From Candidatus Heimdallarchaeota archaeon (GTDB lineage Archaea; Asgardarchaeota; Heimdallarchaeia; Heimdallarchaeales; Heimdallarchaeaceae), in the NCBI GenBank assembly GCA_018238545.1, contig JABCTC010000067.1:1-12761 (forward strand): DNA of 12,761 nucleotides. Reading direction: 5' to 3'. Position 1 is the first letter of the stretch; each line of letters opens with the position of its first letter. Under the pieces are notes generated by a model. That model made no database searches. It had not been told where the DNA came from and saw nothing but the letters and a program-made list of their open reading frames with translations. The position numbers were made by a program, and so were the translations under genes. Below, in pieces: positions 9,521 through 12,759 of the stretch.

Positions 9521-9860
9521 ATAACATTTGATTACATTGCTATATGCTTTTCTTTCTTATTACACAAAGAAATAAGGTGCGGGTAATGGTTCTAAAAGGT
9601 TTTAATATGAAGGATTTTTTAAGAAATATTTACAAAAGTTATTATCCAATATAATAATTTAAAACTTGTACCTAAGGTTGTACAAAACTTCTTTATGCTT
9701 CTTCCAATCCCAAAAAACATTTGATTTCTTAACTGAAAACTCAAAATATCATATAAACCCGCAAAGTTGATTAATGTGTTTAACTTATTATTTATTTGAT
9801 ACACCAGATGTGAAAAAAATGAAAAAATTAATCACAAACAGGAACTATTCACTATTCGCT

Positions 9861-9868
9861 TTTATAAA
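9861..9868. promoter_or_regulatory. TATA box (palindromic TTTATAAA)
   Basis: Perfect archaeal TATA consensus. On + it would place a TSS near 9891-9895, at the start of the structured island. The box is palindromic and the purine-rich BRE-like flank is on the minus-strand side, so orientation is ambiguous. Confidence 0.4.
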
Positions 9869-9893
9869 ATAATTTTGTCATAAAGTCATATTA

Positions 9894-10045
9894 AAAGTAT
9901 TGGTGATCCGAAAGCCTTGCCTAAACGCACGGTGAACGGGGTAGGAGGATACGTGATGTATCCACTAAGAGTGAGTATAGAGTGTCTTCGCCCTATATCA
10001 TGAGCTCTAAGCACGACATGTACCTAGCTTTGTCTAAGAAGACAA
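9894..10045 (+). ncRNA. Candidate structured ncRNA or leader with a canonical kink-turn, family unknown
   Basis: 9901-10030 has 63/130 G+C (48%) versus 13/60 and 12/60 in flanking 60-mers. It contains hairpin GGAUAC/GUAUCC (9947-9963), a long K-turn hairpin (9965-10011), a 5' stem GCCUU/GGGGU (9914-9942) and a possible closing helix 9894-9905/10021-10031. Confidence 0.65.
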
Positions 10046-10188
10046 GAAGACAAATAAGCATCATTAATTAGGCTTTCCTTATAACAATTTGAAAAAATCT
10101 ATTTGAAATCAAAAAAAAAGAAAGAGTGAAAGACGTTAACTTAGCTTTCTAGACATTTTTGCCTATATTTCGCATACCTATAATTCTC

Positions 10189-10210
10189 TCTGTGATGATG
10201 TCTGTGATGA
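10189..10210 (+). repeat. 10-bp direct repeat TCTGTGATGA x2
   Basis: Copies at 10189-10198 and 10201-10210, at about the point where flavodoxin similarity begins. Confidence 0.6.
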
Positions 10211-10607
10211 CTCTGAGACTATTGAAGATTATAATCTACTAGTTATTGGAACTTGGTCAATGATGTTTAAACTCAGAAGTAAAAGTAAAAGATGGCTAAC
10301 AAAACTTAGTAAAAAGAAAATTAATGGTAAAAAAGTTGCACTCTTTTTCACAAGCGCAGGACCTGAAGAAGTAATCCCTGGTACACAAGAAACTAATCCT
10401 AAATTGATTAAAAAAATGGTATTTGAAACAATGGAGAATATAATCAATCGAGAAAAAAAGGTAAGTACTCTTGATGATCGTTTCTATTGTAAGGGGGCTT
10501 TTCGCATGATGTGTAAGATAATGAATAATGAAGGGCACCCAACAGATGAGGAACTAGAGCAAGCTAGAGCATTTGGAGAAATGTTAAAAGACAAATTTGA
10601 AACATGA
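10203..10607 (+). pseudogene. 5'-truncated flavodoxin-family gene (ORF track 10260-10607)
   Basis: The frame is open upstream of ATG 10260 and reads TIEDYNLLVIGTWS (flavodoxin beta3, DYDLLVIGSPT-like), then INGKKVALFFTSAG and GHPTDEELEQARAFGEML. Beta1 and the FMN-phosphate loop (YxSxxGNT) are absent, and an in-frame TAA lies at 10137-10139 with no ATG/GTG/TTG between it and 10260. Confidence 0.75.
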
Positions 10608-10636
10608 TTTTTATGCAGAAATAATTCATTTTATTT

Positions 10637-10663
10637 AAAAAAATAAAGAAAAAAAAGAAGAGG
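10637..10663 (-). terminator. Oligo-T terminator of the surface protein gene
   Basis: Minus strand reads CTCTTCTTTTTTTTCTTTATTTTTTT just after the stop at 10672. Confidence 0.55.
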
Positions 10664-10671
10664 GTTGTAGA

Positions 10672-12759
10672 TTATTTTCTTCTTCTGAAGAGCAAACCTA
10701 AAACTACTATGATTGGAACAAATAAGATGAGTGATAGGTAGCCAAATTCAGGAACATATATTGGATAATCTAAAGGATTATTTGGATCTGTTCCTTCAGC
10801 TACTTCTTCTCCGTCCGAATACCCGTCGTTGTCAGAATCCCAATCTAATGGATCTGTTCCTTCAGCTATTTCTTCGCTGTACGGAAGTCCATCTCCGTCA
10901 AGATCATAGGTATAAATATTTGTCATATAGTATAAATCATCCATGGTCCAGTGGCTTTGGTATCCCAATGTTCCATTTAATGTGATTCTACTTATCTCTG
11001 AATCTTCAGAGTAAATTTCCACAAATTTGTTTACAGAAGACGGTTCGACGCTCACGTTAAAGATAAGAACATCTTCAGAAGAATAAGCTAAAACATCTAT
11101 ATTATAATCATTAGGTGAACAGATATAGAAACTCGTGTACATGATTGGTATTGTAAAAGTCATATTAGGATTTGATTCATGACTGTAAGCAACGGTGCTT
11201 CCTGAATTAGGCGGATAGAGTGAACTACCTTCAGATTTCCAAGACTCAAATCCTGCTGAGAAAGTTATATGAGGATATACATCCAAGTAACTATCTGGAT
11301 AATCTTCGAAATCTAATAAAAATTCAAAAGTTTCCTTATACTCCTCAAAATACAAAGTATCAATCGACCAGTAATTCTCAAAATCAGTAGCGCCTGAAAT
11401 CGAAATTCGATGAATGAAACCTCCTACGGAATACAATTCTACAAGCTGATTTTTAACACTTGGTTCAACGTCAACAATCTGTATTAGAACATCATCTACA
11501 CTATAAGCTTCTACTTGTATATCATAATCCGCAACGGCACAGACATAAAAACTCACATAGGCTATCGGAATATCAAATGTGATATTGCTTACATGTTCAT
11601 TAGAATACATAACAATATCACCCGACTGTGGTGGGTAATTTGCGTTTGAAGATGAATCCCAAGTTATATAATCTGGAGAAAATGTTACACCAGCATAAAG
11701 ATCCTCTATAAATGTACCTGACGCCAGTTCATCAAATGTTAGTAATTGATTTTCGCCTGGTGTGTATTCAATATGACATAGATCATCCATAATCCAGTAA
11801 CTTTGAAAGTCAGTATCTCCAGTAAAAGTTATATTATGTATCAGGCCTAGAGTTGATTTTAATGTTACGTATTGATGTACAGTATTAGCATAGACATATG
11901 CCTTTTCTAACAAAATTCCACTCTCACTATATGCTAGAACCTGCATATTATAATCTGAACCTATGTTAATATACATTGAAACAGCTTCAACAGGGAAAGA
12001 GAATGTTATATTTGGCATCAGTTCATGAGTATAGACTACATTGCTTCCTGAATGTGGAGGATAGAGAGGGTGAGCAGATGAATCCCAAATTGTGAAACCT
12101 GGAGTGAAAGACAGACCTGCATAGTTGCCATCAACTACAGTGCTATCAGCTAAATCCTCAAAATCTATAAGATTCGGTGTTGGGGAAACAAATTCTATAT
12201 AGCTTAATGTATCCATTGTCCAATGCCAATTGAAATCTACTATCCCACTTGCAGAAATATTATAGATTCTTCCTAAAGGTGAGTTAAATTCAATATACTG
12301 GTTTATCGTATTAGCTGTAATTGATATCTCTTCTATTGCTATATTTTGATTAGTGTATGCAGTGAAAACAAGATTATAATCAGAAACAGCTGTTGAAACA
12401 AATAATCCTACTTTCTGAATAGGTATATCAAAAACAAACCAGTTGTTTACTTCATTACTTACAGCTACATTTTCACCTGATTCTGGTGGATAATATGTAC
12501 TACCAGTAGAGTTCCATATTGAAAATCCAGGCGAAAAATCTAATCCTGGATATGAAGATCCAATTGGATCAGAGTCACCAAGATCTTCAAAATCTATTAC
12601 AGCTTCCCATGGAGCTTGTTTAATCAGTGGTTCATCAGTAGTTAACGAGCTACCTTCTTGTTGCATTGTATCATTTAAGCTGTTTACAGCTGTTTGATTC
12701 AATGAGAAACATAAAATTAGTGTTATAGCCAGCGCTATACTTTGTTTTATTCTTTTCAT
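10672..12759 (-). CDS. Cell-surface protein: signal peptide, four ~142-aa beta-rich repeats, Ca-binding DxDxDG (TSP3-like) motifs and a PEF(G)-CTERM-type sorting signal
   Basis: Signal peptide [19 protein letters not shown]. Repeats start at V54, L197, L339 and L481 (IDFEDL...YxGxxFSPG...YPPxSGxxVxYS...WxMDxL). Then [30 protein letters not shown]-terminus VPEFG-TM-RRRK. Confidence 0.92.

Follow-up and report, generated by a model that had tools for sequence, protein, structure and literature searches.

The window, i.e., the whole stretch of DNA analyzed here (12,761 nt of the Candidatus Heimdallarchaeota source assembly, G000), carries a short GC-rich island that is bordered by a divergent ATP-NAD kinase gene on one side and a flavodoxin-like open reading frame (ORF) on the other. 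The GC content amounts to 45% over positions 9894–10045 and to 52% over 9905–9970, with 23–25% in the flanks on either side, and 1.3% of the 152-nt segments of the genome reach the value of 9894–10045. The original prediction, made from the letters alone, had described an abrupt GC-rich island outside any long ORF. This was borne out by the GC profile, although the measured 45% replaces the 48% given there. Likewise, no resemblance to tRNA or known RNA families had been noticed, and no Rfam family (E ≤ 10) and no tRNA overlapped the island in the window. Rfam searches of four homologous loci (E ≤ 0.5) returned nothing on the element either, and a suspected likeness to the c-di-GMP-I and FMN riboswitches was dropped on the same grounds.

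Including that of the window, the genome contains 24 copies of the island, 13 of which are 92–100% identical. Copies start at GATCC (9905 in the window) and stop at CATCAT (10064), while their flanks are unrelated and the neighboring genes differ at every copy; the right limit of 10045 proposed at first was thus too short. Compared with its 12 closest copies in the genome, the window scaffold is identical at 148 to 155 of 160 positions. At nearly all other copies, the segment comprises the final 33 codons of an ORF encoding a 419-aa TnpB, followed by the right end of a transposon. In the window, these codons and the stop (TGA, 10001–10003) occupy 9902–10003 on the plus strand, inside the scaffold, and 9902–10000 aligns with residues 387–419 of the C73 TnpB at 91% identity (tblastn). 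The original prediction had foreseen that the segment might align as a fragment of a protein-coding gene, and over these 33 C-terminal codons it does. The arrangement of island and upstream tnpB also recurs at 26 loci of genomes titled Candidatus Heimdallarchaeota. There is consequently little doubt about the nature of 9903–10064 (plus strand): it is the scaffold of an omega (re)RNA and belongs to a family of Heimdallarchaeota transposons with TnpB as their sole protein, of which the window appears to carry a deletion derivative that occurs once. An orphaned TnpB/IS-derived guide scaffold had been the last of three options listed in the original prediction, and it proved right.

The 419-aa ORF scores as guided_TnpB (E = 3e−42) and contains OrfB_IS605 and Cas12f1-like domains. 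The genome contains six complete tnpB ORFs at 90% identity or more, and TnpB matches at E ≤ 1e−50 were found in 42 of the 82 genomes of the class. The catalytic triad is intact by sequence, with D186 kept in 119, E335 in 120, and D376 in 119 of 120 homologues, while Gly288 stands where the canonical RuvC-II Glu would be expected and a CxxC finger is missing. The Gly at RuvC-II, an alternative Glu downstream, and a NADxN RuvC-III motif are shared with the RIIr-5 clade, to which the protein was assigned by motif only; this layout is predicted to be active (PMC10691335). A PDB search yielded nothing better than a weak match to a designed nuclease, and literature searches returned no paper on this Heimdallarchaeota TnpB family.

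The fold of the scaffold was derived from an alignment of 51 homologues and comprises P1 (9907–9910/9937–9940), P2 (9914–9920/9927–9933), P3 (9947–9951/9959–9963), P4 (9968–9980/9993–10008), and a hairpin in the right end (10030–10035/10040–10045), which is poorly aligned and 58% paired. Over the whole alignment, 87.8% of the cells are paired and 17 of the 39 pairs changed on both sides; none of 500 shuffles reached this level and slid controls gave 32–51%. Since the homologues are related sequences, these shuffle controls overstate the covariation, and the 5′ half of the scaffold is largely under coding constraint as well. More weight is therefore given to three other observations, namely a change from A-U to G-C in P3 that seven sequences carry and that falls on two synonymous codon positions, the pseudoknot described below, and the fate of P2 in protein-less copies of relatives (L020, L022, L078, L090, L171, L172). 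There, P2 persists with a shorter loop that breaks the reading frame, and selection therefore acts on the RNA. Folded by itself, the sequence proved modestly more stable than shuffled versions (z of −1.3 for the plus strand, −2.0 for the minus strand, and −1.8 for 9903–10064), which is why the structure rests on covariation and not on energy. A covariance model of the alignment additionally gave weaker matches in another order, there too at the 3′ ends of tnpB genes. With regards to the original prediction, the plus strand assignment was right and P3 (GGAUAC/GUAUCC, 9947–9963) and a long P4 (9965–10011, here refined) are supported. Neither the P2 register nor the closing P1 proposed there holds: the former breaks one pair in 24 and another in 29 of the 51 homologues, and the latter relied on 9894–9904, a piece of left-end DNA that the other copies lack.

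The P3 loop (GUGAUG, 9953–9958) forms a pseudoknot with the six terminal bases of the element (CAUCAU, 10059–10064). All six positions are paired in 51 of 51 homologues, the compensatory change being confined to one column (G-C to U-A in three sequences), and the G at 9955 is invariant although synonymous. A CGUG/CACG pseudoknot involving 10012–10015, as originally suggested, is paired in 47% of the cells and was discarded in favor of this one. Pairing of a hairpin loop with the last bases of the element belongs to the omega-RNA core of ISDra2 (PMC10097598), and a pseudoknot between a loop and the terminal motif also occurs in haloarchaeal omega RNAs (PMC12558985). The pseudoknot sets the start of the guide at 10065. 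P4 (9968–10008) carries the sequence pattern of a canonical kink-turn, in which a 3-nt bulge (9999–10001) is followed by tandem G·A/A·G pairs (9973–9974 with 10002–10003) between two helices. Both GA steps are preserved in 38 of the 51 homologues, and a kink-turn is probably formed. In a literature search, no title dealt with kink-turns of natural TnpB guides, a weak sign of novelty. Taken together, the structured and conserved scaffold covers the 3′ end of tnpB together with the right end (in the paralogues, with 33 codons left in the window) and stops sharply at a variable guide, and a cognate TnpB with a catalytic RuvC triad is encoded in the same genome.

Intact copies measure 1,417–1,441 bp and carry tnpB as their sole gene. 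Their ends are imperfect inverted repeats of approximately 30 bp (21–26 of 30 positions identical in copies other than that of the window), each containing a pair of TGTC-type motifs with a spacing of 9 bp, and the left ends show no consistent hairpin. The element follows (T)TAT and terminates in CATCAT, after which homology among all copies stops. The T before the left end (19 of 19) was built into the search pattern, and unbiased support for the target motif comes from the raw copy listings, where TAT directly precedes the left ends; the first base of the predicted TAM varies (15 T, 3 A, 1 C). In the relative G016, the empty site corresponding to the C73 copy has one AT, and a single AT also gives the best restoration of three interrupted ORFs. 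This would fit an AT core as well as a 2-bp duplication, and formally it also fits a Y1-type TTAT target with a terminal TCAT motif and no duplication.

The window copy is a 201-bp unit in which a 41-bp left end (9864–9904) is joined to the scaffold at GATC (9905–9908). The target motif TTAT (9862–9865, plus strand, as are all features of the unit) is the predicted TAM, and its last AT also closes the right end. The left end proper (9864–9893), a 30-bp imperfect inverted repeat with two TGTC/AGTC-type motifs, was recognized by an end-profile match, and the stretch up to 9908 (11 nt of left end plus GATC, 9894–9908) by left-end comparison. The opposite arm of 30 bp (10035–10064), located by homology among the copies, ends in CATCAT at the boundary of scaffold and guide, and 17 of 30 positions are identical between the two ends. 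Within this arm, the G at 10038 is specific to the window copy. Since full-length left ends carry ATC or NATC at the offset of the junction, and exactly GATC in L057, the simplest origin of the unit would be a microhomology-mediated deletion at GATC that removed approximately 1.23 kb, i.e., the promoter and tnpB codons 1–386. The TTTATAAA box (9861–9868) noted upstream of the island in the original prediction turned out to be a composite of host TTT, the border AT, and the start of the left end, the TATA-like box of the element itself being deleted.

On the left, the unit abuts the promoter region and the first ~15 codons (ATG at 9819) of a secreted-protein gene (9752–9865, plus strand), cut at TTTTAT. 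This flank matches G016 (L104) at 86% up to 9865, and the ORF there extends to ~515 aa, while the remainder of the interrupted gene was not found in the G000 assembly. On the right, the flavodoxin-like gene (10215–10607, plus strand) is 5′-truncated by ~25 codons, as its orthologues of 166–175 aa align only from query residue ~25. In G016, ~1.9 kb with a 408-aa gene precedes the flavodoxin-like gene, and this stretch is gone in the window, where 10140–10607 consists of the 3′ remnant of a minus-strand gene fused to the truncated gene. A weak C/D-box match of Rfam lies over the junction of these two genes (10181–10245) and is probably due to chance. The two flanks of the unit map to different contigs and neighborhoods of G016 and not to one empty site. 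Among the contigs of public sequencing runs, one run shows the left end at this locus (to 9887) and another the right junction, contigs of two runs leave the window at 9865, others break off at 10064, and none of those listed bridges the junction at 9888–9905. Given these flanks and contig borders, the two ends may stem from separate insertions that were fused by deletion in a decaying region.

As promoter and nuclease are lost, the window copy is best regarded as a decaying relic, a reading we hold with fair but not full confidence. Its two ends and whole scaffold are kept without any ORF, and the deletion stops at the 5′ edge of the scaffold, as would be expected of a selected, mobile RNA-only mini-element (PATE/MITE-like) that is spread by the transposase of the family and supplies trans guides. 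True RNA-only families of this scaffold type do exist in relatives, and a related family of ~238 bp has at least six full copies in this genome. However, this junction of left end and scaffold occurs only once in the assembly, the internal promoter of established mini-elements is missing, the flanks with their separate counterparts in G016 do not form a clean insertion site, and the GATC microhomology accounts for the breakpoint without selection, so that we consider a mini-element unlikely.

An assembly chimera, in which the left end of one insertion was joined to the right end of another, appears still somewhat less probable. Repeats often break this assembly, and the public contigs could be read in this way: one of run X1 supports the right end and right flank (10040–10800) while another leaves the window at 9865, and one of run X2 contains the left flank and the left end to 9887, with 10118–10279 uncovered. 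Yet the junction shares just four bases, presumably too few for a k-mer misjoin, and the remainder of the interrupted host gene is absent from the assembly, as a real deletion predicts; the identity of the RNA would be the same either way. The two other options of the original prediction, a novel host ncRNA and a cis-regulatory leader, are refuted, since the island is a dispersed repeat with unrelated flanks and aligns with TnpB codons. A riboswitch-like leader of the flavodoxin-like gene would find its argument in the position of the island, ~150 nt upstream of that ORF on the same strand. But the distribution of the repeat with its varying neighbors, the missing Rfam match, the lack of any match upstream of the flavodoxin orthologues, and the 5′ truncation of the window gene itself leave this reading next to no credibility.

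For an intact element, the mode of action can be proposed from work on ISDra2, ISGst, and IS607, from which expression, loading, and cutting are inferred. A promoter in the left end would drive tnpB, the 3′ end of the transcript would fold into P1–P5 with the P3 loop paired to the six terminal bases of the element, and a guide of ~16–20 nt would come from the adjoining host DNA. TnpB would then cut (T)TAT plus flank, the sequence of the emptied site after excision, and repair from a sister copy would restore the element. For IS605, repair of the break from a copy still holding the element has been described (PMC10055086). The relic in the window retains all stems, and its RNA could load on TnpB from the six near-identical intact genes. 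If it were read through from the truncated host promoter, which we regard as possible but not probable, it might act in trans as a putative guide for TnpB made by intact copies, and the joint left by its own excision would be the sole target. The predicted guide, by omega-RNA rules, is the host flank at 10065–10084 (plus strand), and no further TAT plus guide site with up to three mismatches in 16 nt exists elsewhere in the assembly. Most likely, the window copy does nothing and at most guards its own position. The same locus was sought in other samples by exact-protein look-ups, by a pattern scan, and in metagenomes, which revealed no close strain.

The search for the enzyme that moves the family covered several classes of recombinases, and as all assemblies are incomplete, a transposase is here reported as not found rather than absent. 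No Y1 HUH transposase was found in G000 or in 23 same-genus genomes (72–92% complete), and the five Y1 loci in other genera lack matching ends. IS607 tnpA is absent from every copy examined. IS607 TnpA exceeded the cut-off in 10 of 30 genomes, not including several copy-rich ones, and its loci have other ends. Neither IS630 (DDE_3) nor IS110 transposases were found in the five genomes searched, and none of the DDE_Tnp_1 (IS4/IS5-type), Cas1, tyrosine recombinase/integrase, or resolvase loci carries the ends of the element. An IS110/IS1111 bridge RNA was rejected because the upstream gene is TnpB and no IS110 transposase was found in those five genomes; an IS630-like TA target duplication was rejected because any base can follow CATCAT and the search of five genomes for DDE_3 genes came out empty. 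Solitary serine recombinases of 252–269 aa (L044–L046, L141–L148) occur two to three times per genome in nearly all relatives, in a fixed host gene context. A lone 107-aa N-terminal fragment of Cas1 (G000 C36:20616–20831, L073) has no adjoining TnpB. Guessing from the anatomy of the ends, a serine recombinase acting in trans is our tentative first choice, at somewhat less than even confidence; an unrecognized DDE-type or other enzyme is possible, and Y1 doubtful.

In comparison with the omega RNAs/reRNAs of IS200/IS605 (ISDra2; haloarchaeal sotRNAs RF02656/RF02657), the scaffold likewise has ~160 nt and several stems, overlaps both the 3′ end of tnpB and the right end, and shares the pseudoknot of loop and last bases as well as a guide taken from the flank (PMC10097598, PMC12558985). 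In contrast to them, the family matches no Rfam model, has a probable kink-turn, and is accompanied by a TnpB that lacks a zinc finger and has the rearranged type of RuvC-II, with no Y1 in the 24 same-genus genomes searched. As in IS607, a dinucleotide is common to the two ends and occurs once in the empty site (PMC6188088; bioRxiv 10.1101/2023.11.20.567912), short repeated motifs are inverted between the ends, and the TAM includes the dinucleotide. However, it is AT and not GG, and the ends are terminal, equidistant inverted repeats (identity of 21–26 of 30), which IS607 elements lack, with no tnpA in any copy. The IS607 elements of this genome have other ends (CCGT…GCGT) with border GT, not GG, and encode a serine TnpA and a TnpB-like protein of ~648 aa (G000 C71:12849–15584, C82:18169–20899, C102:1–1703); alongside them, a ~402-bp MITE is present in many copies (e.g., G000 C21:11426–11827, C43:96158–96566). 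Symmetrical ends are also known from DDE-linked TnpBs (PMC10691335), but no IS630 or IS110 transposase was detected in five genomes, the IS4/IS5-type genes lack these ends, and the dinucleotide of IS630 is TA.

Standalone omega RNAs and PATE-like derivatives are a known class, with both ends and scaffold but no nuclease, so that TnpB and transposase are needed in trans (PMC10691335; PMC10055086). The window RNA is such a standalone TnpB omega RNA, and the copy is probably debris; unlike PATE-like derivatives, it is single, promoter-less, and probably without a clean insertion, and its ends are inverted repeats, whereas those of PATEs are palindromes. Several further elements were observed. The RNA-only family of ~238 bp (G000 C38:20963–21200, C40:22600–22838, C42:15956–16195, C109:29741–29984, C114:37176–37419, C43:118055–118290) has TAT…TGTCAT ends and a TTTAAATA box of its own. 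It also has an additional 5′ hairpin and a related scaffold, and pairing is possible between the scaffold loop (GTGGCG/GTGACG) and the terminal TGTCAT. In the RNA-only mini-elements of relatives (L078 and L090, both ~430 bp; L171, L172, L020, L022), an extra structured segment between the left end and this scaffold replaces tnpB. Internally deleted copies with both ends, some minus most of the scaffold, are numerous (G000 C48:4562–5323, C48:96521–97263; L005, L021, L089, L156, L165, L173). Other solo TnpB-like families (G000 C124:29739–31114, C62:24326–25704, C78:13426–14795, C62:60084–61829), one ~40% identical and one of 492 aa, apparently end in …TCAT, a hint of a shared mover.

The family provides a complete, testable Asgard TnpB system comprising the protein, the scaffold boundaries, the pseudoknot, and a predicted (T)TAT TAM, and it is missing from Rfam. 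More interesting than the window copy are the missing transposase and the kink-turn, and a very active family without a transposase in sight could matter more than this single copy. As a speculation which we consider rather unlikely in its entirety, the family could represent a new type of TnpB element, in which a trans recombinase or transposase beyond Y1, IS607, IS630, and IS110 reads the ~30-bp inverted repeats and exchanges at AT, while the kink-turn recruits the L7Ae of the host as third subunit of the nuclease complex. The conserved kink-turn might link the guides of TnpB with archaeal guide RNPs through their L7Ae machinery.
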